Below are positions 9,870 to 57,562 of a DNA stretch of 64,000 nucleotides, piece after piece. Each line of letters begins with the position of its first letter. Position 1 is the first letter of the stretch. A program made the position numbers and the translations under genes. This stretch comes from Moniliella sp. 'wahieum' (lineage: Eukaryota): positions 248,001 to 312,000 of the forward strand of contig RSEE01000003.1 of NCBI GenBank assembly GCA_003971905.1. The letters run 5' to 3'. The notes beneath the pieces were generated by a model. It was not told the DNA's origin, made no database searches, and was given only the letters and a program-made list of their open reading frames with translations.

Positions 9870-10060
9870 GAAGCCTGAAGCCTGAGGCTTGATTGAGGCT
9901 TGAGAGAGGTCTGGGGCCTGATGCTTGCTTGAAGCTTGAAGCTTGAACGTAGAATGATAGCTTGAAGCCCCTTGAGGAGCTTGAAGCTTGAAGCTCTTGA
10001 AGCTTGACTGGTGATCGCGTTTCTCCGGTAAGTGGTTACTAGTTACTAGTTACTACTTGT
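9870..10060. repeat. Heptamer arrays (GAAGCTT)n and (TTACTAG)n
   Basis: gcttgaagcttgaagcttgaacg; gcttgaagcttgaagctcttgaagcttg; gttactagttactagttacta. Confidence 0.8.
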
Positions 10061-15199: not shown

Positions 15200-15853
15200 A
15201 AACGTTTTTGTGCAAAATCAGCGATGGTACGCCAATTCATTCATTGGCCATGGTCAGAATATCCTTGTGGTTGGGCTTGGGAGTTGGGGGCGATAGTTCA
15301 GGTGAATCGAGGCGACTCTAGAGGGGTTGGGGATGGAGCGAGGCTGTTATCCTTTGTTCACGCAAAAAGGCACCATGATGTTGGAATATGAACCACAGTT
15401 GATATGGTTGTTCGTTGACCATTGAAGGACGGCTGGCGCAATGGTAGCGCGTCTGACTACGAATCTTTGTAATCAGGAGGTTGCAGGTTCGACCCCTGCG
15501 TCGTTCGACCCGACAAGGCGTCCCTTCCTTTTTATTTCTTAATCCCTGCAACGCCCGATCTACGTGCTGGTTCTTCACTCCATTCAGCGTGACCGCCTCG
15601 TCCAACCGCACAACTTGCATCGAATGCACCATCTCTCCAGCTCACGCAACAATCGTTACACATTTCAAGACAGAAAAAAAAACAAAGTGGGTAGGGAACG
15701 TAGAGCAAATGCGTTGGAGCCAAGAGGGAACGAAGATAAGAATAAGAGGTATGTCAAAGCTCAAGTGTACGAGCAGACTGATAAAAGACAACGTATGCGC
15801 CAGGGTGGAGTCCTGTGAAGGACCCAGGTAAGTTGGAGTATGGTCGTCTGTCT

Positions 15854-22545: not shown

Positions 22546-24339
22546 GCTGGAGTGATACCCTGCCACGCCTCGCCTCTGAGCCTCTGCCACTACGTTTCGG
22601 ATCATACCCATGATGCATGTTCCTTCTAGATCTTATGCCTCAAAGCCACTACGCTTCCAATCAAAGGCATTTATGTGTTCAATATCAGATGCAAAGCAAA
22701 ACAAAGCAAAGCAAAGCAAAGAGAGTAACTAGTCCTCTACACTCCCGTAGGTTGCCCTGCTCCTCTCAAAGGGGTCGTCTTGCCATCCTCACGCCAGTGG
22801 GCATGGAATGGGTCAAAAGTGGCAGTCCCACCAACTGTTCACGATCGTTGCCGTTTTGACCGGGTGCTAGGGGATATACCCTCCCCCCCCCCCGATTGTC
22901 ACATGCGTCATCATTACATGGCAATCGAAATTTCTGGTGCACAATCTTGTGGGCCTTGCCCACCTTGAATTTCGTACGTAGTCCTCACATCTATCCGGAA
23001 CCTTGTTACCGGCATTTTCGATTAGCTATGTACTAGTATCACGCTTTATAGTTCTCAGCGATGTATACTTCTCCCTCTCAGTACGATTGATACCTTTTCA
23101 AGGGAAAGCATACCAACATGATCGTAATTCATCTTGAGGAGCAATGCCTTGTCCTTCGACGGACAAGGTGAAAAGGGCGTTCAGAACCATACCAGCCCGT
23201 CGGTAAAGCACAGTCATGGTCGTAGTGTCGTAGTGGAAAATGACAATAGTAGAGACTCATTAGTAACCTTGCCTGCCCGCATCAGAAAAGTATTGGAAAT
23301 GGAGCAAGAGCCATCCAGCATAACACGGCCAAACCGATTGAGACTCGCACAGACGGCCATGGTGCGAATGTTAGTACAGCCGAGCGCCGTAAAGGCGCCT
23401 CTCTCTCTTTGACATTGAAGGAATAGATCGATGAAGCTGGAGCAACAATAACCCAAAGAGCATCTTGTTTGCTTGCATCCCCAATCCACCGCCAACGCTG
23501 TTTCGACCAAGATTATGTGCATGGAGGTAAGGAGGTGCAAATGCAATCCACATCCCGACCAAGTCTGGGCGTGCCGGGTTAAGACTTGTGCACACAATTG
23601 CATTGGTCCTGGCAATATGGATGCAACTGCCAGATCTACGTTAAGTTTTGGCAGAGGGTGGGGGGCGCGTCCTGTATAGAAGGGTCCTGAAGATTTACTG
23701 GCGATTCCCTGATTTCTTAAACGGGGTTGGCGCTAACAAGCAACATACACCGGATGAACGGGTCGGTTTAGGCGGAGCGTTTCTTGTCCCAGCATTAATC
23801 TCTGTCAATGATATGGTTACCGTATAGAGAAGGGAGAGGATAGCTGTGCTATATGAGTGCGACTTCAGTTGGGAGCACTCGGGGATCCATCCTATGGCAA
23901 AGCAGTCTTCAGACAAGGCGTGAAGTGGTGAGCCACAAGTCTTGAAGCAATGTCGCGAGGGAAGGAGACAGGATACAGAAGAGCGAGATGGGCAAGCAGG
24001 GGGTGCGAGCGCACTCTTCTGCCCAGCTACTAGGCGAGTGCCACCGCTCACCGATCACCTGAGGGCCGTGCGCTGAAACCCTAGCATTCCAGAACAGCGT
24101 CGAAGGAGGTGGGTGATCTCATGTTGCATGTGTGATGGTGCGGACACTGGTGTGGCGCTCAGTCGGAGTACTCGACCAGCGAGGCCTGAGGTGGGGCGAA
24201 TGCGAGCCTGAACGTCTGGACGATGAAAAGCGCTGCGGGTACAACGGAGGACCACCATCCAATGGACGTATGAACAGTGAATGCCGTAACAGGCCGAAAA
24301 CACTCCCATCGCCTCTGAACACACTCCCACCATCTCCTC

Positions 24340-29270: not shown

Positions 29271-30168
29271 ATGCAGCTCAAGGCCGCCCTTACCCTCCTC
29301 GCTGCCGCCGGCGCCGCCGTGGCCCAGCAGTTCACCATGAACACCCCCACCCAGGCCCTGATTGCCGTACGTTGGCCCTCCATGTTTTCCCCTCCGCCAC
29401 CATCCACAGCACTGACTCCATTTTTCGTATCAAGTGCGTGCCTGTCCTCCTTACGTGGCAAGCGGTGCCGGCCCGTACACACTGGTGATTCACACCTACA
29501 GTGGTTCTGCTGGCCCCGTTGTCGACACGATCCAGAACCTCTCTGGCACTAGCTACACCTGGACCCCTACCTCTGCTGTGGCGGGCCAGGAGCTTCAGTT
29601 CGACCTGACTGACTCTACCGGTGCCATCGCCCAGACTGGTGGCACCCCCAACGCCGTGCTTTCCAACGACCAATGGTACGTTTCAACTATCTTCTCTTCT
29701 GATTCGTTCTTCTAATCGATTCTTGTTGTTAGTGGCGCATCGTCGTCGGCTGGCAGCTCCAGCGGCGCTGCTGCTCCTTCCTCGTCGGCTGCGTCGTCCT
29801 CGGCTGCGTCGTCGTCCGCCTCCCCGTCTTCGTCGGCTGCTAGCCATTCGTCTTCGTCGGCTGCCAGTCATTCGTCCTCGTCGGCGGCTCCCTCGTCCTC
29901 GTCGGCTGCTCCCTCGTCTTCGTCGGCTGCTCCCTCGTCTTCGTCGGCTGCTCCCTCGTCTTCGTCGGCTGCTCCTTCGTCTTCGTCGGCTGCTCCTTCG
30001 TCCTCGGCTGCGGCCTCTTCGTCGGCCCCTCACTCGAGCTCGGCCCCCTCTTCTGGCCCTGCCGCTTCGGGCAGCAGCTCTCAATCCAGCAGCTCGGCTG
30101 CCGGCTCCCTTCGTGTGCCCGCCGCTGTGGCTGGTTTCGTTGGCCTTGCCGCCGCTGTCCTCCTTTGA
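29271..30168 (+). CDS. Secreted Ser-rich GPI-anchored cell-surface protein
   Basis: Signal MQLKAALTLLAAAGAAVA. Small beta-type domain (FTMNTPT...GPYTLVI...GTSYTWT...LQFDLTDSTGAIAQ). Two introns, Ser/Ala/Pro repeats, and GPI-like tail SAAGSLRVPAAVAGFVGLAAAVLL*. Confidence 0.85.
29880..30020 (+). repeat. 21-bp coding tandem repeat (SAAPSSS)n
   Basis: tcggctgctccctcgtcttcg repeated about 6 times. Confidence 0.85.
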
Positions 30169-33100
30169 GTGGAGCACTCCCTCGCGCTTTCGTTGTTGAC
30201 GGGATGAAGACGTTCTTTGTGCCAACCTCACCTTTACACTCTTCGCCGTCGAGTAGCAATGCAATACTGGTCGGGTACGGTTGTCGTGCGCTGCGCGTGT
30301 AACCGTGTGCGACCGGTTGCTACCAATACCTATATCGTCACTCTGCTTGAACGATGTTGCTTCCCTGTTTCCACCTCCATTTTGTGTTCTCTTTACTCTC
30401 CTCGCTGCCGTCACGGCTATTTCATCTCATTTACTCCCCGACCTCTTCTGCCTGTAGGTCCTTCGTTGCTGGCGCTTTTGTCGGGTCATGATGCGGAACG
30501 AATTTCTTATTCCATTTGTATCAGCCCGACTCCATGTGGCCAGTAGAAGGCCATAGAGCGAGCACCATACTATTGCCAGGATATGTCGGCGCGCCTTACG
30601 CTGCCGTCTTCAAGCGATGCTGGCGATGCATTCTTCCGTGATGTTGTGAATTGCTGTTGTATGAGGCTGGATTTGTACAGCAAACTCATGAAACGCACAC
30701 AACACGGATTCTATGGAGCGTTGGATGTATTGAACGTTGATGTTGACGTTGCCCGTGCCGACAAAGCCACTACTAGCACTAGCCATCTAGTCCTACTCGA
30801 TCCGCAACGTACTTTCCCAGCCCCTCGCGCAGCCCGATGAGAATGTAGAGTTGTCGTAACAATAGGGAAATGCATGTGACAACAACAGAAGGTGCCATTG
30901 TGATGTGACATGTGACATGTAGATGTGATGTGCGCAATTGCATGACGCGTGATGATCGATGATCGATGACGCCTGTGACCTGCTCGCACCCTTCCCCATG
31001 CCAGAAATTGTCTTGGAGGCCTGCCGAAACCAGAGCGGATTGGAGCCTGACAGTGGTCTTGTGCCGCCAGAGCACGGGGGCACTGGCGTGTACCATCCCT
31101 TCCGGCTGGGCGATGGTGACCGGTGAGATCTGATATCTGTCGAGATCATATACTCGTTGGCTCTGTTCCCTGACGGCCTGACCTTTTATCGTTTTGCGGT
31201 GTGCACGAAAGGTTCCACGGGTCACCCACCCTGCCGGCCTTCCCTGTCGGCTGCTATTGCTGGTGTGGATCATCTTCCCGAAGACATCATGACCCACATC
31301 TCTTCTCGTCCATCGTCGGACCTCTCTTCTCTCCCCCCCTACAATAATAGAAGCAGAAGGCAGAGGAGGTTATGGTCTAACCTTGGTGGCGCCTCCAAGT
31401 AACTCCCGCAAGATGAACGGTTTGGTTTAGATGCAGCGTTTCCCTGTCCCAACCTTAAGCTCAGTCAATGATATGGATGCAGTATAGAAGAGCAACTATT
31501 GGAGGTATAACTAAAGTAGGTGACAACTTGAATAAGGCTTGACGGTTAACGCGTGCGAGTCACGGCAAGCGGTGGAGAGCATCATGTGCCCGCATTCCGC
31601 GGTACGATATCTCCAACCTGCTAATAACATGGGCATGAGTGAAGCTTGAAGCTTGAAGCTTGATTGGAGGGACATGTCACCGTCGCAATCGGTTCTGGGT
31701 GCCACACAGTTTCGTGCAACAGCTGCTTTCGGAGGGCATGGGAGGGGAAGGGGGTAAGTTTGACAAGACAGGATTTCCCTCCCGAGAAGTCACCTACTCA
31801 CCCTTGATGCGTTTTTCCTGTGTGTCTCAATTTTGTGCTCGAAAGAACTTCATTGCCTCGCTCAATTATATGCAGGCTAGAGACGGGCGAAGAAAGAATT
31901 TGAATGGAACCAATCCGTGGCACTTTTTCCTAAAGTATATCATTATACCATGGAGCTCCATGGGGTGGTGAGCACAAGGCAACAGTTCCAGTTCAACATG
32001 TACAAAATCATATACCTTCTTCATCTAGGTGAATTCGGCTATACCCACACCAACAGACTCGTTCACAATGCGCCCCACACCTGAACGACAGGCATATGGG
32101 TGTGTGATCCCTGAGAGCTGGAGCGAAGATAACTTATCCTTGTGCGTTTATATACTTGTAGTCACCTCCTCATATTTTAGCCCTGGCACAATGCGTCTTG
32201 AGCGAATTCAAAATTCACCCATATGGCTTTGTAACAGTGGATATGCGAGAGCAACGTTACGCCAGCATGCGCTGAAGAAAGTCGATGAGATTCTGACAGA
32301 GGTAACAAGATATTTATAGGGTGGCACACTTTCACTGGCCTCCAATCTTGTTATCTGTTGGCTATATAATATCCGTACCATATATATATCAGAGACTTCT
32401 CACGGCCGTTCATTCACCCAAGGACCATCACAACAGAGCCACTTCATAGTGGGTTTTACAGATTTTTGTCCTTCTCCTGCTTAATTTCGTTGCAATACAA
32501 TGTTGATTATGAAGACAACACCAGGAGAAGAGTCCTTAGGCCAGGTGTGACCCTTAGTAGATCTTTATATAACAGGCAGGCAAACGCCCACAAGCTATGC
32601 AATAGGCAACCGTCCAAGCTGTTGGTGGTCTGTTGCGATACAACATATGGCTGAAGTAACAATCAAGAGAAACGCCAGTGGAGTAACCACAGCAGAGTCC
32701 AGGTCCCTCTGGCTCCCCCGCCATTCACTTTCAAATAAGATTGGATACGAAAAAGCGCGGAAGAGATATTACGCGAGTGATGAACCATTTTTCCAATGAG
32801 ACTCTTCACCAAGAATCTTTGAAGTGCTCATACACCATGTCGTTGGTGGATTTGTTGGCTGCATAATACACCCGCGTAGTGTCCTCATGACCAACGGCGC
32901 GAAGAAAAATTCTTAGCGAGTCCCTCGTACTTCAAGGACGTTCTTATCGCATTCCGTTGGCTGCAACAGTCCATGCAGTTTCTTCTCGTACTATTCCACA
33001 AACGTTAGCACCTTCTTTATACCCATATTTTTGTTTCCGAGTCAGTTTGGAGTGTGGTCCACTTCCGTATCTGATCCTACAAACACCTCGGCTCCCGTTA

Positions 33101-47965: not shown

Positions 47966-48137
47966 CTGCTCGTTTACTATACATATATTCGTCAGTCTAT
48001 ATGCATAGCGAGCTGCTTTGCGTCTATCTTGTTTTGTACATGAAGGTAGATAGAAGAAACAGTGGGGATGTGATTCACATTCCTCCATCTTCATCGCATC
48101 AATTCTCAGTAACATTGACCGGAAACGGATAGAGATA

Positions 48138-48158
48138 CACGGGCGGGTGTGAAAAATT
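48138..48158 (+). repeat. Left TIR
   Basis: ta|cacgggcgggtgtgaaaaatt. Confidence 0.92.
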
Positions 48159-48575
48159 GAAACATGGGTCATGGCGGGATTGGAAAATGGGTAGATCGGC
48201 TGGATAAGCGGAGTGGGGCTGAGGAGGCCGTGGCAGAGACCCGACGCTTGTGGCGACATCCATTTGGGGCTGCAACCGACGCCTCACCGTCTGGCCTCTT
48301 ACTCCATAACCGCCCCTTCGCTTCGGCCATGCCCGTGCGCATGGGACGCATGACAGTCACCCGTCACCTGGCTCGTTCGCCGGCAAAAGAAGCTTATGTG
48401 CGCATGCGCATCATGTCAAAGCGCCGCCCACCGCCCCATCTCACGTCTCGAGAGGTTCCGGCTGATGGGTCCGGGATGCGCACCACCCTATGGCCTGGCT
48501 ACTGACGACTGACTACTGACACCAAACCTATACTCATCCTCATCGCGCGATGCATATGTCCATTTGGTTCTCGCA

Positions 48576-51500
48576 TCAATCATTATCACTGTCCGAAGAG
48601 TCGCCGCTGTTGCCCCCTCCTCCGACAGCGGCCACGGCAGGTGTCTTCTTCTTGGCGCGCTTGTCCCACAGGTGCATGGCACCGTTCGTTGCAATCCTCT
48701 GGGCCACGTCTTTGCTCAGCGCGTTGGCGCTCAGTTCGGGGGACTTCCAGCTGATCCTCAAGTCCATGTGCGGCTTGTGGTGTGGTGGACTTCGCATAGC
48801 GTATTCGTTCAATACCAGCCGCTTCCCATTCTTGGCTTTAAAATGAGAAGCCGCCGGGATGAAGTACTCCATCGCCTCATTCTCCCCCGAGACTGGGTCC
48901 TTCTCGTAGTTGTGCACCAGTATTTTCTCGCCGTCTTGCTCTATCATGCACTTCTTGGTGCAGGCGTGCTGGAGAGGCGCCTCGCTGCCAACATCCTGTG
49001 GTCACAATGTCCCAGTGTCAGTACTTGATGAGCAATTGTCACGCAGCCGGATTCAGCACTCATCGGTGCTCACCATCAATAGGGCAAACTCTTCTGGAGC
49101 ATCACCATCATCGAGTTCGCGGACAATGCGGCAGCCTGAGCGATGCGTGCTACCCGTGATGATGTACGGCCTGTACCCGACCCAGGCAGCCTTCTCATCC
49201 AACGGGTCGCGCCCAATCCGGAGGATCTTGCCAATAACAAAGTCGGCGGACGCGCTGTACTCGGCCGACTTCTGGCCGATCGTCACGTTCATCCCCACAC
49301 GGATCATCTCCCCTGTAGCGATAACAGCCGCCTTGCCCACCAGGTACTGCGCCCGCACCTTGACACGGTCCGCCAACTGGAAACGACCCAGCTCCTCGTC
49401 GGTGAGGTTGTTGCAACCCACCGAGGATTGGTTCTTGGCTGGGGCCAGCACCACTCGTGGAATCGCCATGCCATCAGAGTCGTAGTCGGGCTCTTCCTTC
49501 CCTTGCTCCAGCACCCGGGAGGAGCTCCAGGCCGAGCCACCACCGAGCCGTCACTAGACACATCATACCCCGGTGAAGAGTGGTGCAGAATCTTCTCGGC
49601 GACCATGACGTTGTACAAGGTGTCACGCGGGAGGTTCTGGAAGTTGCAATGGGCAACGGACGCACGGATGTGCTTCACGCGACCCTCGAATCTGGCAGCG
49701 TCCGTGTTCTGGAGAGGGCCGAACAATTCGAGCGCATCAGACGTATGCGCCAGGAGGAGATGGAGCTTCGGTCGCGTCGCGATCATGGCGCTGTCGGGGC
49801 CGAGTCTCGAAAGGCGTTCGATCAGTCGGTATGCAGTCTGGGTCACCCGGTACTGTTCCAGCCATAACAGGCATGTCAGCGTCTAAACCCGTATATCAAT
49901 CAAGGCTGTGGGACGTACCATGAACTGGGCCCTGGCCTGCCCGGCTGCCGGGTACCATGTCCTGGAAAGCAAACCATGCAGGTCGGCTGCCGCGACGATA
50001 GCATCATAAAGCGGAATCGGAAACGTGAACTCCTTCTCATTGTTGGCCTCTTTTCCGGTCTCAAGGATAGGGAGTGCCGCGAATGGGAGAGCCACAAGCA
50101 TAGTGCGCACATCTTTCCCAACCCCAGTCTTTAGGTTAGCCATCAAACCCTTAGCTCGGATCTTGGTGCCCTCTGCGCCAGGGATACCCTCCGTGTTGAG
50201 ACCGCTGATGAATATCGCCAATTGCTCCTTCGCCTTAGGCTTCACCCTTGTCGCCACCAACTTTAGCAGGTCCTTCCCTATTCCGAGGAGGAAGGTGTGA
50301 AGAAAGTCGAGGGGAAAGCAGTCCGCCACATCAAACTGCGGCAGGGACAGCGCCGGGCACATCAAGAAACTCTTCCGTCGCAGATCGTCCGCCTCGGATT
50401 GGTTCAGCTCAATGACCCTAGCCCTTGTCTTAGGCAAAGCAAATCCCTTCCGGGACGGGCGAGTGTGAATGGGCTGCTTCTCACCCTTATTCTCGAACAT
50501 GTGTCGGCGACACAGGCAGCAGAGTCGGTGGACGTTGGGGTCCCTGTCGCCCGTCGCGGCGCGTTCCCGGTCGTATGCAGCGTTATTGCCCAGGATAGCG
50601 TGATCCACCTGCCTCTCGAGGTTCGCTTGGATCTGCTTATTGCTTCGCTTCACACCTCCTGTGAGCACATGCAGAATTTGGTCAGCATGGCCGCGGTTCT
50701 GGAAATTGGCCCCGCAAATACGGCAGCACAGGGGGCTAGGACTGAGGGCACGGGCAGCAAGGTGGTTTCCCGCTGGGTTGTCCGCTACCACAGCATGAAC
50801 AAGGGGGATGAGGACAATCGGGCGGCCTGATATTCCGTCGGCCCCCTTGATGCCTGTCTTTCCCCATATCCTGAGCAGAAATGCCAGTCAGCGGTGATAT
50901 ATAAGATAGCTTAGTAACAAAGACATACTGGACCTGGCGCACAAGGGCCTCAAACGCGCGCACTTCATCAGTTCCCAGCTTGACCATGAACAAACTCGTA
51001 CCCTCATCCGCGAACAGGTGGCTTTGAGGAAGACCGGCCCAGGACAGGTAGATGACTGTTGCACCCGCACGCTGCCGGCTGTGGCTGAAAACGCGCGCGT
51101 CGTCGCACCAAGCCATCATGGGTGCAAAGATAACGCGGTCGGCACCATGCTCCTTAGACATGGCGCGGAGCGAGTTCTGCGCCACAACGTCACCAGACTG
51201 GTCGCGAAATGACAGGCGACGGTAGGCCTGTTCCTTGAAGGGCGTGAGATCGTCGAGTGGAACAACCGATTGTTCAGCTGTAGGGGACACACGATATGTT
51301 TGCCGTATCATGCCAGCGGCGCCTCCAGCACCATCATCCAGAACCATGTCTCTCACACGGGCCATTACACGCCGAGGAGCGTTTGAGTCAGCTTCAATGT
51401 GCCATCCTTGGACAAGAACGATCCCTGGGGATGGGGAGGTTGTGTGTCAGGTCTCTGCCTCTTCACAGCCGCGGGTTCGTCCAACCAAAATACTCTCCCG

Positions 51501-52736
51501 CAGCTGTTGACAGCAGTCGGCTGTCGTGACATGACCTTATAGAAACGTTGGCCATCTGATACGTTGCGCACCACAGCTCGCTTCACTGGCAAGTCCTCGA
51601 TCACGCTCCGCAAGCGGGTGTTGCCATACGCCAGACGTGCGATCTCATCCAATGGACTGAAGTACGTCTCGCTCAGAGAAGAGTCAACATACTTCGGAAC
51701 AGATGTGAACGGCCCGTTGAGTTTCCTCCGCACTTGCGACACCTTGTGCCATGTAGGTATGGCGCACTGCAAGCAGCGGGCGAGCCGCATCAAGAGCAAT
51801 GCTGCCCGGGCCTGGCGCCTTGAGAAGGAGAATACCGAGCCATAGAACACGTTCATAACTGCCCAGATCTGCGGCTGGCAGGTTAATCTCACCAGTCACA
51901 CTCAAACGAGCAAGAGAGCAAGAATGTGACATGTGACGTACCATTGGTGACTCAAAGACGCCTGCGGCAGGCCATGACGCTGGGGGATTGGCCACCAGTC
52001 GTTCCAGAAGCTTGATCCTTGCTTCAGCAGCATGAGGCTTGGGCCGCCAGCCGTGATGCTGCCGTCTCTGTGTGGCGGAAGACGCAATGCATCCGGCTGC
52101 GTGCGCCGTGGCGTTCGACCCTGCGCCCATCATCTCCCTGTCCCAGTCGAGGTCATCCTCGGCATCAGTCCAGTTCGAGTCATCTTCGTCGCCGATCACA
52201 TCATCACCTTGGCCCAAAAGCAAGTGCTCGAGAGTCTCTTGGTTGCGGATTTGCTCGACACGCTCATTCGAGGCGCCGAGCGGGTTGTCACGCGCCCACG
52301 GGCGGCAAAGGACACGCCCGTGGGCTCTTGAAGGCGGTTCAAAGGAAACACTGGGCTGCGTCTGGCCTAACTCGTCCTCGGCCATGGTAGTGTCTACAGG
52401 TGAAGAGGCACGGGAAGCAGGGGAAGGCGAGCGTGCGTTAGGTGGCTGGGGGGGCATGCTCGCATCTTCGGCCACCTCGTCAATGGCGTGGGCGTGACTA
52501 GCCCCCATCCTCGCACCCAGCACCACGTTATGGATGTGCTTGCGCACCTTCGCGTGCTTGAGTGCATCAAACTGGGTCATCGGTCGAACTGGGCAAGCAC
52601 GGCACTGGAACAGCAACCTCCCGTTCTGCTGCACCGTGGACCAGGCCGAGGAAACAGGTACAGCAGATGCTGTCCCATTGTGCACGTGTGCGAGCTTGTT
52701 CCATCGGGCGGCACCACTGAGCCGAGGTCGAAGCAT
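48576..52736 (-). CDS. Fungal EnSpm/CACTA-type DDE transposase with N-terminal C2H2 zinc finger
   Basis: Start context GCCACCGCCATG at 52736. Zinc finger FQCRAC-x12-H-x5-H. Candidate catalytic and structural motifs PMMAWCDD, VVADNP, CCRIC, PLDFLHTFLLGIGK, RPKLHLLLAH...FGPL...RFEG. Introns at about 51941-51888, 50928-50871, 49918-49853 and near 49000. Some frameshifts. Confidence 0.85.
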
Positions 52737-53711
52737 GGCGGTGGCGACTTGGTAAGGATGGGCGATGGGTTGTACATGATGCATGGGTGTGGGTGCTTTT
52801 CTTGCCACCGGCCCGACAGACAATCGCGGCCCTCCAACCTTAAACCTTGCCCCCCCTGTCCCATACAGACCAGAGACGCACGCTCTCCCGCTTTTTGATG
52901 CTCTTCCAAGGCGTATTACATTCGTGATCCCCTATCTGATGAGAGTGGCAGTCCAGATGGCCACCCTAATGGGTGATGCGATAGCACTATAGTGTTGGTC
53001 GTGTGGTGGTCGAATACGCCACCAGCCAACGACACGCCTAATACAAGGATGCATCAAAAAGAGCAACAGAGGCTATACCTTAGGGATGCGGAGATCATGC
53101 ATCTTGGGAAAAGAAAACGCAAAAGTTAAATTGAATTAATGGTTACAACATCGGAGCTCCTTGAACTGCACGGGGCGCGATAGACCCTGGTCGAAACACA
53201 CAGACCATACTGATGCGGCTCTTCTCACAATATCCCTAGATCGCGTCTATTTCATTGACAGAGCGTAAGGCTGGGACAGGGGGAACCCTGCGTCTAAACC
53301 TAATAACCGTTCATCTTGCGGGGGTTGCTTGTTGGATGCGCCACCAAGGTTAAGGAACCAGAGGGATCGCCAGGATATCAGGACCCTCCGGTTCTCACCA
53401 TCCGGTCCTATATTATCCCTCGATTCGCCCTGTGCACTTTTAACATCAGCTGCCCCGTGCCACCTTCCACGCCCCCTGCAGCCAGCAAGCATCGGTTATA
53501 TTATTTCTCTATGTCGGTGTTGGCGACCGTGGAACGGTGGCTACGGTGGCGAAGTGGAAAAGGTGCTAAGGTGGCGACGCAGCATCAAGCTGGAGCGAAG
53601 CCCCAGCTGACCGGGCCGTAGGCCCGGTGGTCCTCCTTGTGTATAAGCGCATTACAACTTCCTTCCCAACCAACACCGTTGTGCTTATACAGCTTACCAA
53701 CTGTACCGACA

Positions 53712-55123
53712 ATGGCCCCTCCAATTGTCAGAAGAGGAACCCCCAGTCGGATTCCTCTCCGGCGCCGCACCTCGTTGGCAGGGGCGGGCACACCTTCTGT
53801 CCGTCCTGGATCAGCGCTTTCTGCTGCGAGGGCGACACGCCAGGCGCGGCCGACAACACTGTCGCAGCAAGGGACAGCTCCCTCTGAGAATAATGTTATT
53901 CTAACCCAAGCCCAGTACCATGGCGAGGATGCAAACAATGCCTTGGACATGACCACCACAGGAAACATCGACGTGGATGATGATATGACCCAGGAGGCCG
54001 TAACGGAGGGGGAAACTCCGGCTCCTGATACCGAAAACGATGGGAACAGCGCGATGAGCACTTTCGGCGAGATGTTTCCAACTATCGACACTTTGCTCGA
54101 CAACGGCGATGATACGATGCCCAGGGCCCAACGGGAAGGATCATTTCCAGCCGTCCCTTCCCTCTTCAACGAGGGAGATTTACAGGAAGGGTCTAATACC
54201 GACCAGATTGTGACGACGTTGCGTATGCTCGTAGGGGCTGTCAACCACATGAACGATCGTATGGAACGCATCGAGACTAGAATGGAGACTCATTATCAGA
54301 ACTTGATGGCGTCTGCCAATGCGAGCCCCCAGGGTTACCGGTCGTTCTTGGATGCAAACAAGGTATGCTCGCCTCATATTCTTCATTGGTTATTATAGGA
54401 CTAACTTCAATGCCTGCAGACGTGGGTTGCTGCCCTTGCGATCATCGTGTGGTGCGCCCCGAATGCGTCCATTACTAGCAATGCCCACCTGTGGTCGCGC
54501 GTGTCCCACTTGCTACGGCAACCGCGCGAGCGGCAACTCCTGTGCATACCTCTTGACCTCGCTTGGAGAGGACGTATGGACGACTTTCTCCATGAGCTCA
54601 AGAAGGTCCTGACTCCTCATTGGAATACTCTGCGGCATGATTTACTGCATCGAGTGCGCATAATCTCTCATTATGTGTCCAGGATTGCAGCTAACCCCTC
54701 CTAACCCATTTCCAGTACCGCCATCAAGGCCCTCATCCAACGCAGGCCGACAGGACGGTGTTCAACCTGGACGGCTACATTCGTGAGACCTGGGGGAAGT
54801 TGGGCAACATGCGCAACACGCTCCCGGCTCATCTCAAGCGGTTTCCAGCGTGCGCTGTGAAAAAATTTGCCCTTGTCCATATTGCCATGGCGCGCCTTCA
54901 GGTTTTCACGCAGAACGGCAGCGACACTACTGAGCGAACAGCCCAGGCCCAGTGGACGAGGGTGGAAAAAGAGTTTAACAACTTGTCTTCGAACACACCA
55001 CCAGATGCCACCACATATGTGAACACGCTGCAGAGTCAGCTAAACGTTGCAGGCGGCCCGGCGGACGTGTATCCGCATTGCTCGATGCTGCTCCCGGACC
55101 TGAACGCAGTTCCGAAGACTTAG
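53712..55123 (+). CDS. Second transposon gene (TnpA-like accessory, function unknown)
   Basis: MAPPIVRRGTPSRIP..., disordered acidic N-terminus, short coiled coil (VNHMNDRMERIETRMETHY). Introns 54363-54419 and 54654-54715. Helical C-terminus VHIAMARL...QWTRVEKEFNNL. Lies inside the TIRs, divergent from the transposase. Confidence 0.75.
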
Positions 55124-55959
55124 AGGAGCTCCTCCCAGTGATATAGCACTGACCATTCATTCGGCCTGCGCAAGGACTTTGGTGCATCGTGCGTGAACAT
55201 AAGAAGTCATGTGGTGCCCATTCACTTGAAGCTTGATGTAACACCGTAGGCCACTAGTATGGATCAAGTGAGGATAATCGTGACCTGTATAGCGATTCAC
55301 CCGGCTATGGAGACCGCAATGAATGCTGAAGCGTTTGGGACAGTAGCGTAAACGATCGATTGCGGGCGAGAGATAGGCGTTGGTGGTAGGAAGCAGGACG
55401 AGAGGGCTATACTGGACAAGGCTATTCGTCGTTGGCTTACGCGGGTACGCGCGCATCAGCAGTCTTCGGAGCCCGCGGAGCCTCGGGGCTAGAGAAGCTG
55501 CAAGTGCGTCGCGTTCGGCGAAGCCAGTAACCAGTCACCGTCGCAACAGAGACAACTAGTACTACAGCAAGTCGCAAATCGGCAAACTCAAGAGAGCGCT
55601 CTTGAAGCTTGATTGATGATTAGACCCTTGAACACTGCTGCAGGGGGCCGCTAGTGTTGTGGCGTTAATAGACAGATATAATAGCTTACCTAGGCCCCTG
55701 GCGTGGTCCAGATTGGTCTGTGCGCACAGAATGTGGCTGCGCCACACGCGCCTCCTTTTAACCTCCTGCTCCTCTGTGGTTGCATCCTGTCTCCTCACCA
55801 CCGCCCCTCTCATTGCGCCCGCAGCAACCAGTATCCCATCTCTGCAGCCAACACATCTCAGAGTGCTCTGCTGTGCCACGGCGCAACAGCACCATCTTCT
55901 TCCCCTGGCCACTAACATCACCATCGTTGTTGCCTGCACTGCTTACTGCCCGCCTTGCT

Positions 55960-56712
55960 AGTCCCGTCCCCATCGCTCGGTTCTCCGCGCCTGGTCTGCA
56001 TTGCTGCCGTACGTCTCCATTCCCTCTCCCGCCACACTCCGTCCTCCTCGCCTCGTCAGTATCGCTGGTGAACGCCCCCTCTGCCTCTCGCCCCGGCCCC
56101 CTCTCACTGTCTGCATTGCTTTTGTCGTATGTGTTCTCTTGCCCACCAGCGCTCTGTTGCTGACCCCGCCTACACAGACACCCCCTCGGTGGCCATCTTG
56201 CCCTCGTTTCACCTGATCCGCAGCGCCATCGTACGTGCCCGCTTCCTTCGCATTCCCCACACTTCTGCTGACCTTGTGGGTAGCATGCGTGATGTGCATG
56301 CACCGTTTCGCTCACCTTCGGCCTTGTCCGTCTGGTTCCATTTTGCCTCGCCTGAGGTCCTCTCGCTTGGCTGGCCTGCCTTGCCATCGTATGTCCCCCG
56401 TACTTCGCGCTTGGAGTTGTCCTGCCACTGACACTATCTACCCAGCTGCTCTGCATGCACGGAATCCCACGGTTGGTTCGTCTCGTCTTGTTCGCCTCGA
56501 CTCATCTGACCTTTTTCGCCGTCGTACGTCCCTTCTCTGTTATATGCCAACGCTGTTCCTAACCTTGTTCGCCCTACCAGTGTACATTCCGCCTTCATCC
56601 CGCTTGACCTCGCTACTGGCCCTCTTGATCGCCTGACCTGTGAGTCCGTCGCACATTTTCTGTGTCTCTCGCTAACCCCATGCTGCTGCTGACTTGGCCA
56701 GCGTCTCCCTAG
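55960..56712 (+). other. Multi-intron transcript-like unit inside the transposon right arm
   Basis: Five consecutive canonical 51-62 bp introns: 56127-56177, 56231-56283, 56389-56445, 56524-56580, 56640-56701. Each has a GTAYGT or GTGAGT donor, a CTRAC branch point and a YAG acceptor. Confidence 0.6.
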
Positions 56713-56961
56713 TGCGCGCTCCCCTCATACTAACCTGCCACTTTCTGTACCGCTCACTGCTCTACTATGTTGTGGTGCTTCCGTCTGACGTCACACCTAA
56801 CCGTGGTTGCCGTGTCATCGCTTCCCAGCGATCTTCGAATGCATTCTATACCTAAGAAATACCTACCCTGCCTATAAATCTAGTAGTTCTGGATCGATGC
56901 CAGCCCCATCCAACCAGCCGGTTAGAAAGCCTACAAGCACGCATCCAATCAACAGCTAAGC

Positions 56962-57255
56962 GTTTGAGCGCATGTGGCCAAAGCGCTTGAGCGCATGTGG
57001 CCAAAGCCATTGAGCGCATGTGGCCAAAGCGCTGAGCGCATGTGGCCAAAGCCATTGAGCGCATGTGGCCAAAGCGCTTGATCTCATGTGGCCAAAGCGC
57101 TTGAACGCATGTGGCCAAAGCTTGAACGCATGTGGCCAAAGCGCTTGATCTCATGTGGCCAAAGCGCTTGAACGCATGTGGCCAAAGCGCTTGATCTCAT
57201 GTGGCCAAAGCGCTTGACCTCTTGGGCCAAAGCGCTTGACCTCATGTGGCCAAAG
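56962..57255. repeat. Subterminal tandem array, 13 copies of a ~23-bp unit (CATGTGGCCAAAGCGCTTGAnnn)
   Basis: 13 GGCCAAAG cores counted at 21-23 bp spacing, ending about 66 bp inside the right TIR. Confidence 0.95.
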
Positions 57256-57321
57256 TGCCGAAGGTAATATTCGGAAAAATTTACTCATTTTTGGGTGATG
57301 TGGTCATCTAAGCGAAATTTT

Positions 57322-57342
57322 AATTTTTCACACCCGCCCGTG
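57322..57342 (-). repeat. Right TIR
   Basis: aatttttcacacccgcccgtg|ta. Confidence 0.92.
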
Positions 57343-57562
57343 TAGGGGGCGAAGCGGGGGCCAGGCACTGTGCACACGATATAGCCAAGGAAAAAAGAGG
57401 AGCACGGATTATACTCCGGCCGCCAAAGTGGTACAAGACCAATCGCGCAACGTCCCAAACATGCCACAGACAAAAAAAGGGAGATTTTGGAAGCAGGAAG
57501 GGCAAGGATATGGAGTGAGCGAGACGGGAATGAGCTCAGTGCTCACAGTACTTCGTGGACGC

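Follow-up and report, generated by a model that had tools for sequence, protein, structure and literature searches.

A C+T-rich block in the right arm of a transposon, crowded with short introns and yielding no recognisable protein, raises the question of whether a fungal transposon controls its own expression or silencing via the host spliceosome. The block lies in a 64-kb window (the whole stretch of DNA that we analysed), on the same strand as the second gene of the element and directly upstream of a subterminal array of 23-bp repeats; we refer to it as the third unit. The reading that we favour, with roughly even confidence, is that the third unit would be a spliced non-coding transcription unit of the transposon, reading toward the subterminal array. 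We weighed this reading against the signals of the intron cluster, the anatomy of the host element, its copies in a second source, and the coding potential of the block. The features concerned are listed in Table 1.

Table 1. Features of the transposon and its third unit; positions are numbered from the first nucleotide of the window.
Feature	Position	Strand	Details
Transposon	48136-57344		inverted-repeat, 9.2 kb; EnSpm/ESTA/Plavaka type
Left terminal inverted repeat	48136-48162	+	27 nt; terminus TA followed by CACGGGCGGG...
Transposase-like gene	48576-52931	-	multi-exon; ORF pieces; introns 49853-49918, 50871-50928
Gene 2	53712-55123	+	no assigned function; exons 53712-54362, 54420-~54653, 54716-55123; stop TAG 55121-55123
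TATAAT(A) motif	55677-55683	+	candidate core promoter; ~50 nt before ATG 55731 and the block start
Third unit	55740-56850	+	C+T-rich block with all introns, 1.1 kb; C 431, T 321, G 219, A 140
Extra candidate intron	56009-56059	+	51 nt; GTACGT...CAG, without canonical branch motif
Candidate intron 1	56127-56177	+	51 nt; GTATGT..CTGAC..CAG
Candidate intron 2	56231-56283	+	53 nt; GTACGT..CTGAC..TAG
Candidate intron 3	56389-56445	+	57 nt; GTATGT..CTGAC..CAG
Candidate intron 4	56524-56580	+	57 nt; GTACGT..CTAAC..CAG
Candidate intron 5	56640-56701	+	62 nt; GTGAGT..CTAAC/CTGAC..CAG
Weak candidate intron	56712-56828	+	117 nt; GTGCGC...CTAAC...CAG (relaxed scan)
Subterminal array	56958-57255	+	13 copies of 23-bp unit AAGCGCTTGAGCGCATGTGGCCA; right end only
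Right terminal inverted repeat	57318-57344	+	27 nt; end ...CCCGCCCGTG followed by TA

The earlier note had described five introns on the + strand with canonical donor, branch and acceptor signals, and all five were found where it had placed them. A strict intron scan (donor GT[AG][ACT]GT, branch CT[AG]A[CT], acceptor YAG, length 40-120 nt) returned 16 + strand and 17 - strand candidates from the 64-kb window, and 5 of the 16 fell within 575 bp (Poisson P ~8e-8 at the rate of the rest of the + strand). Five strict introns were reached in none of 2000 dinucleotide-preserving shuffles of 55740-56850 (mean 0.135, maximum 3); this block is also enriched in CTRAY branch motifs (13 vs 3.9 expected) and donor hexamers (6 vs 1.8 expected). 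Each of the five introns follows the strict fungal-type spliceosomal pattern, with a GTAYGT or GTGAGT donor, a YAG acceptor, and a CTGAC or CTAAC branch motif positioned 9-26 nt from the intron 3' end. Their lengths of 51-62 nt lie within the range of the ORF-flanked candidate introns elsewhere in the window (two of them in the transposase-like gene), which carry like signals and are mostly 48-82 nt long. The splice signals of the cluster are real and non-random, and in type and size they are like those of introns in the host and in the element itself.

The three near-identical exon ends that had been reported (GCCATC, GCCATC, and GCCGTC, each followed by GT) are present, and the upstream exon end of the extra candidate intron has GTCTGCATTGCT in common with that of intron 1. 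Position -1 of the donors is C or T in 6/6 cases in the unit vs 5/14 host candidate introns, the other 9/14 having G, and the donors of the unit are thus atypical on the exon side. The claim that the introns are regularly spaced holds only roughly, since donor-to-donor distances are 104, 158, 135, and 116 nt. None of the five introns folds unusually (z from -1.10 to +0.68). We considered introner-like elements as well and rejected them, given that the five introns are unlike one another in BLAST and unit alignments and have no special fold.

In line with the earlier note, the third unit lies inside a transposon, as indicated by the inverted repeats, the transposase-like gene, and the membership of the element in a mobile family. 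The two inverted-repeat arms are 96% complementary, and the termini read CACGGG...CCCGTG, i.e., they have the 5'-CA..TG-3' form laid down as a criterion in PMC12730594. Provided that CAC is read as the first bases of the repeat, TA flanks the element at either end, which would fit the 2-5 bp target-site duplication expected of such an element, with the reservation that, in a single copy, the TA could equally belong to the repeat. According to the available part of the same source, termini of this form characterise the CMCT clade (EnSpm/CACTA, ESTA, and Plavaka), and ESTA elements have TA duplications (PMC12730594, Kojima). A scan for the subterminal array gave 12 matches, all on the + strand, vs 0.05 expected, and the 23-bp array was absent from the left end of the transposon. 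Two perfect palindromes, AAGCGCTT and TGGCCA, are embedded in every array unit, and the core GCGCATG of the unit recurs toward the left end of the transposon (48337 and 48400). A metagenome scan with a 16-mer of the array returned 119 loci, which we consider chance hits because each contained a single 16-mer and none matched the transposon (BLAST, E<=1e-3).

The element's transposase-like gene points indirectly to the same clade. For its 334-aa piece (49883-50887, - strand), the nearest groups in a protein atlas were Basidiomycota Plavaka clusters (0.96, 186 shared features), and a search among 1.84 billion representatives yielded 36 relatives (E<=1e-3), which are mostly 500-1600 aa long. P0001, with 82% identity to the transposase over 78 residues, was the only close relative among these representatives; together with the others (P0002-P0036), the transposase belongs to a group of 350-1600-aa proteins with no Pfam profile at threshold. 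No relatives were found when the piece was searched among longer proteins, in a set of searches (those with the transposase piece and with the - strand ORF over the third unit) that failed to return the window's own proteins. Pfam gave no match to the transposase ORF pieces even at E<=10, and neither PF02992 (Transposase_21) nor PF18759 (Plavaka) was found at threshold in them. Likewise, no Pfam family reached threshold in the 16 relatives scanned at E<=1e-5, and sub-threshold matches to PF02992 (En/Spm Tnp2) were present in 9 of the 13 relatives scanned at E<=1 (E 0.004-0.16). Because no transposase profile was found at threshold, we file the transposon only as 'EnSpm/ESTA/Plavaka-type'. Gene 2, which has introns at 54363-54419 and probably 54654-54715, admits seven frame-preserving models of 404-437 aa; it has a positive codon score in its true frame, and no Pfam family reaches threshold in it.

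We also recorded a 12-mer, CTTGAAGCTTGA, that occurs eight times in the window, all on the + strand, vs 0.01 expected (sites at 9928-10007, 31645-31663, 55225-55236, and 55601-55612). The interval between gene 2 and the third unit holds two of them, and the others are in (GCTTGAA)n-like runs within intergenic repeat-like DNA. These 12-mers could represent binding sites or the termini of related elements.

Diverged copies of the element came from sequencing run X1, one of four sets of DNA contigs that were compared, which derives from another sample and holds element pieces that are 0-10% diverged. One contig, spanning 56579-56966 with 11 differences in 388, takes in two final bases of intron 4 together with the whole of intron 5 and continues into the array, so that the third unit and the array remain contiguous in a diverged copy. 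A contig over 56229-56472 has 18 differences and 7 gap letters in 247, and the one unit difference itemised for X1 is exonic (56622 C>G). The third unit, of which X1 contigs carry diverged copies, is thus a family trait of the element in a second source too, and its evolution includes indels. Two deleted forms of the element were also found. In the first, 48340 is joined to 57211 (depth 31); this form retains ~205 bp at the left and 134 bp at the right, is roughly five to ten times as deep as the internal parts (depth 3-6), and resembles a miniature non-autonomous derivative. The second is an internal deletion from 50216 to 52233 (50217-52232 missing) within the transposase gene. Together, the diverged pieces, the end-to-end deletion form, and the internal deletion show that the element is a real mobile family, and the absence of the third unit from the end-to-end deletion form shows that the unit is not needed in cis for mobility. 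Separately, the part with the highest depth in X1 (25-56) is 53243-53387, a 110-140 bp repeat between the element's two genes that has inverted copies elsewhere in the window at 31378-31480 and 23681-23814 (82% and 73% identity).

A unit that is dispensable in cis could be captured or decayed cargo: the element would have picked up part of a host transcription unit, either a dead gene or an untranslated region rich in introns, too recently for the signals to have decayed, and would draw no function from it. Such an origin has precedent in that large fungal DNA transposons bear extra genes, according to the available portions of two reports (PMC11588098; PMC12730594). However, the 64 kb contain no second copy of the third unit, and its exons have no coding trace in any frame, so that the parent of the cargo would itself have to be non-coding. 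Moreover, the copies diverged by 3-10% still place the unit beside the array, and the full consensus is kept in all five introns. We therefore consider cargo an unlikely explanation.

The earlier note also raised the prospect that the third unit is a 3' extension of the gene beginning at 53712. The stop codon of gene 2 lies 886 nt upstream of the first candidate donor of the third unit, no canonical intron bridges the two in either strict or relaxed scans, and the stretch 55123-55700 is not C+T-rich. Considered together with the TATAAT motif at 55677, these observations make an independent promoter of the third unit plausible, bearing in mind that TATAAT-like motifs are ordinary, short, and occur by chance, as do end motifs. 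Under the extension hypothesis, the block would be a long 3' tail of gene 2 or a set of alternative 3' exons, with its introns in a 3' UTR of 1.8 kb that perhaps makes the mRNA a target of nonsense-mediated decay. This fits with the unit being on the same strand as gene 2 and downstream of it with no gene between, and the promoter that would separate them is itself conjectural. The length of the gap, its lack of a bridging intron, and its differing composition all count against an extension, as does the finding that no host-size short intron can join the unit's open frame to gene 2. An extension of gene 2 is thus quite unlikely.

Another concern is whether the signals are used at all. The block might be an unspliced or untranscribed spacer in which the intron-like motifs are remnants of old duplications of one intron-like module. 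This possibility is related to the earlier proposal that the third unit arose by duplication of exon-intron units, which we assessed by self-comparison. BLAST detected no internal repeat in the third unit, and in whole-unit local alignments 1 of 15 pairs was above z 4, with the other 14 at z<=2.2. Short in-register matches are present around donors 2-4 and where exons 3 and 4 begin, and 11 of 45 part-wise comparisons exceed z 2 (relative to mononucleotide shuffles, a weak null). There is hence faint support for the third unit having possibly been built by exon-intron unit duplication: the in-register matches and part-wise comparisons speak for it, but the lack of a BLAST repeat and the single high-scoring pair speak against it. 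The same faint similarity, alongside the atypical exon-side context of the donors, would suit a spacer with unused signals. Nevertheless, five complete introns never arose in the shuffles, and duplication alone cannot explain five intact signal sets because the units are otherwise dissimilar in BLAST and alignments. We regard this explanation as very unlikely.

The 'exons' of the third unit resemble untranslated sequence. The base composition of the block is C 39%, T 29%, G 20%, and A 13%, and its pyrimidine content is nearly the same in exons (0.68) as in introns (0.67), compared to 0.47-0.55 in the coding exons of the element's two genes. As the earlier note observed, splicing introns 1-4 leaves one frame open, up to the TGA at 56634-56636, and two of the introns are in-frame anyway, given that ORF 56217-56636 reads open through introns 3 and 4. 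This open frame has 218 codons, and 612 of 2000 shuffles of the spliced sequence contain one as long or longer; stop codons are rare in the third unit because of its C/T-heavy composition, and the frame is therefore no evidence of coding. It had also been stated that no clear ATG is visible. This is correct for the spliced frame, which has none before exon 3, but overlooks an ATG at 55731 in another phase. The latter opens a 76-codon frame that ends at TAG 55959-55961, upstream of every intron, and has a hydrophobic start, many Cys codons, and a codon score near zero (0.014); a small peptide is therefore possible.

Codon usage provided no support for translation of the spliced unit. The score, for which nine Pfam-supported ORF stretches of the window served as training data, was -0.077, -0.136, and -0.038 in the three frames of the spliced unit, compared to +0.06 to +0.19 in the true frame of seven real gene pieces (two host genes from the training set, the other five pieces belonging to the two genes of the element). 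It was also below zero (-0.028) in the true frame of a real exon of the window that is Ser-rich and C+T-rich; because the score fails on this exon, coding of the third unit is unsupported while room is left for unusual coding. The gene at 29273-30167 encodes a secreted Ser/Ala-rich repeat protein with a signal-peptide-like start, SSSAAP-type repeats, and two candidate introns, and it equals the third unit in C+T richness, so that strand composition alone cannot rule out coding in this genome.

The conceptual product of the spliced unit contains no Lys and one Glu in 201 residues. Consistent with the earlier observation that the peptide resembles nothing familiar, Pfam found no family in the three + strand ORFs or the 247-codon - strand ORF over the third unit, and in the protein atlas the largest exon piece (55762-56124, + strand) had a recognition of 927 and a best score of 0.78, indicating low protein-likeness. 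A coding role, whether through a micro-exon S/L/P-rich protein with an upstream exon or non-AUG start or through the hydrophobic, Cys-rich frame at 55731-55961, can draw on the long open frame, the existence of real C+T-rich coding in this genome, and the ATG of the shorter frame, but is highly improbable in light of the chance length of the open frame and its lack of an ATG, the scarcity of Lys and Glu, the missing Pfam match, the low atlas score, the 7 gap letters in 247 nt of the X1 copy, and the stop that ends the shorter frame before all introns. The micro-exon gene entertained in the earlier note is likewise not borne out, its exons being intron-like in composition and without a start codon.

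Several other candidates were rejected. A gene on the - strand is contradicted by the lack of splice candidates on the - strand of 53000-57400, and the 247-codon - strand frame over the third unit is a purine-rich read-through without relatives; large protein searches with it, subject to the same failure to return the window's own proteins, found none at near or shorter lengths. A snoRNA host gene was dismissed given that there were no Rfam matches and that the introns are too short. An antisense regulator of the element's genes was dismissed given that nothing else in the element matches the third unit in inverted orientation. Rfam gave no matches at E<=1 in 55500-57400 and, at the gathering score, none in the 64-kb window except one tRNA; this tRNA-Ser (CGA) gene at 15427-15507 is the sole Rfam or ARAGORN match in the window.

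We return to the favoured reading, a spliced non-coding transcription unit of the transposon. On this model, the block 55740-56850 would be transcribed on the + strand and spliced at five strong (and up to seven) short introns, yielding a spliced RNA of ~0.8 kb. Transcription would probably start from its own promoter at ~55680-55740 and probably end either in the less C+T-rich sequence at 56840-56900, just before the array, or inside the array. The transcription, splicing, start, and end of the unit are all predictions from sequence. What is maintained would be splicing rather than a product, and the role of the unit would be regulatory for the transposon. The transcript may, for example, accumulate in a spliceosome-dependent manner and be directed at the array, a putative transposase-binding site, or it may serve to be marked as gene-like. 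Transposon RNAs that splice poorly are reportedly channelled into RNA interference. A stronger version, to which we assign a low probability, is that the act of splicing is itself the function, with the transposon encoding a 'splicing cassette' of consensus introns in a non-coding RNA. An efficiently spliced unit of this kind, directed toward the array, could permit the element to be expressed, protect it from silencing, or determine the state of the chromatin at that end. In basidiomycetes, mRNA accumulation depends on intron number and position, according to the available part of one report (PMC3744415).

Transposons with non-coding transcription units are already known. One that is non-coding, packed with introns, and perfect in its splice signals would be a direct test case for use of the spliceosome by a fungal transposon. 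If the third unit proves to be unspliced or a dead passenger, it would be ordinary transposon cargo. In the titles and abstract openings that we surveyed, we found no CMCT-type fungal element described as having consensus introns densely stacked in a non-coding unit.

The known systems closest to the third unit each share part of its organisation. Introners are introns of which many near-identical copies have spread through host genes. The third unit resembles introner-like elements in linking short canonical introns to mobile DNA, but its introns are mutually unlike, lack a special fold, and are grouped inside one transposon. In the maize CACTA element En/Spm, the multi-exon tnpA gene reads toward the 3' subterminal repeats, splice sites occur in the element ends, and the tnpA exons encode a DNA-binding protein. 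The two elements have a transposase of the same broad clade, subterminal arrays, and an accessory gene beside the transposase, and their layouts are parallel in that a run of small exons and introns occupies the repeat-adjoining arm. They differ in that the tnpA exons are coding while those of the third unit lack a coding signal, and in that the element described here has its transposase gene on the opposite strand and an array at one end only.

ESTA, fungal EnSpm, and Plavaka elements share the 5'-CA..TG-3' termini and the presence of extra genes beside the transposase, and the TA/TA flanks may correspond to the TA duplications of ESTA; in the available part of the source, the cargo described for them consists of proteins (TET/JBP dioxygenases) rather than intron-dense non-coding units (PMC12730594). 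The nearest precedent in the literature consulted is KDZ1 of Cryptococcus neoformans, a ~10.9-kb DNA transposon with two annotated non-coding RNAs and three coding genes (PMC11588098, as available in part). The transposase of KDZ1 is of another group (KDZ, PF18758), one of its non-coding RNAs is antisense to the transposase gene, and the available text describes neither dense introns nor a C+T-rich unit directed toward a subterminal array; furthermore, the non-coding RNAs of KDZ1 are annotated in a reference genome, whereas the RNA of the third unit is predicted from sequence. To the extent that KDZ1 is described in that text, the two are nonetheless alike in being large (~9-11 kb) inverted-repeat DNA transposons of basidiomycetes that combine a transposase with genes of unassigned function and units annotated or predicted as non-coding.
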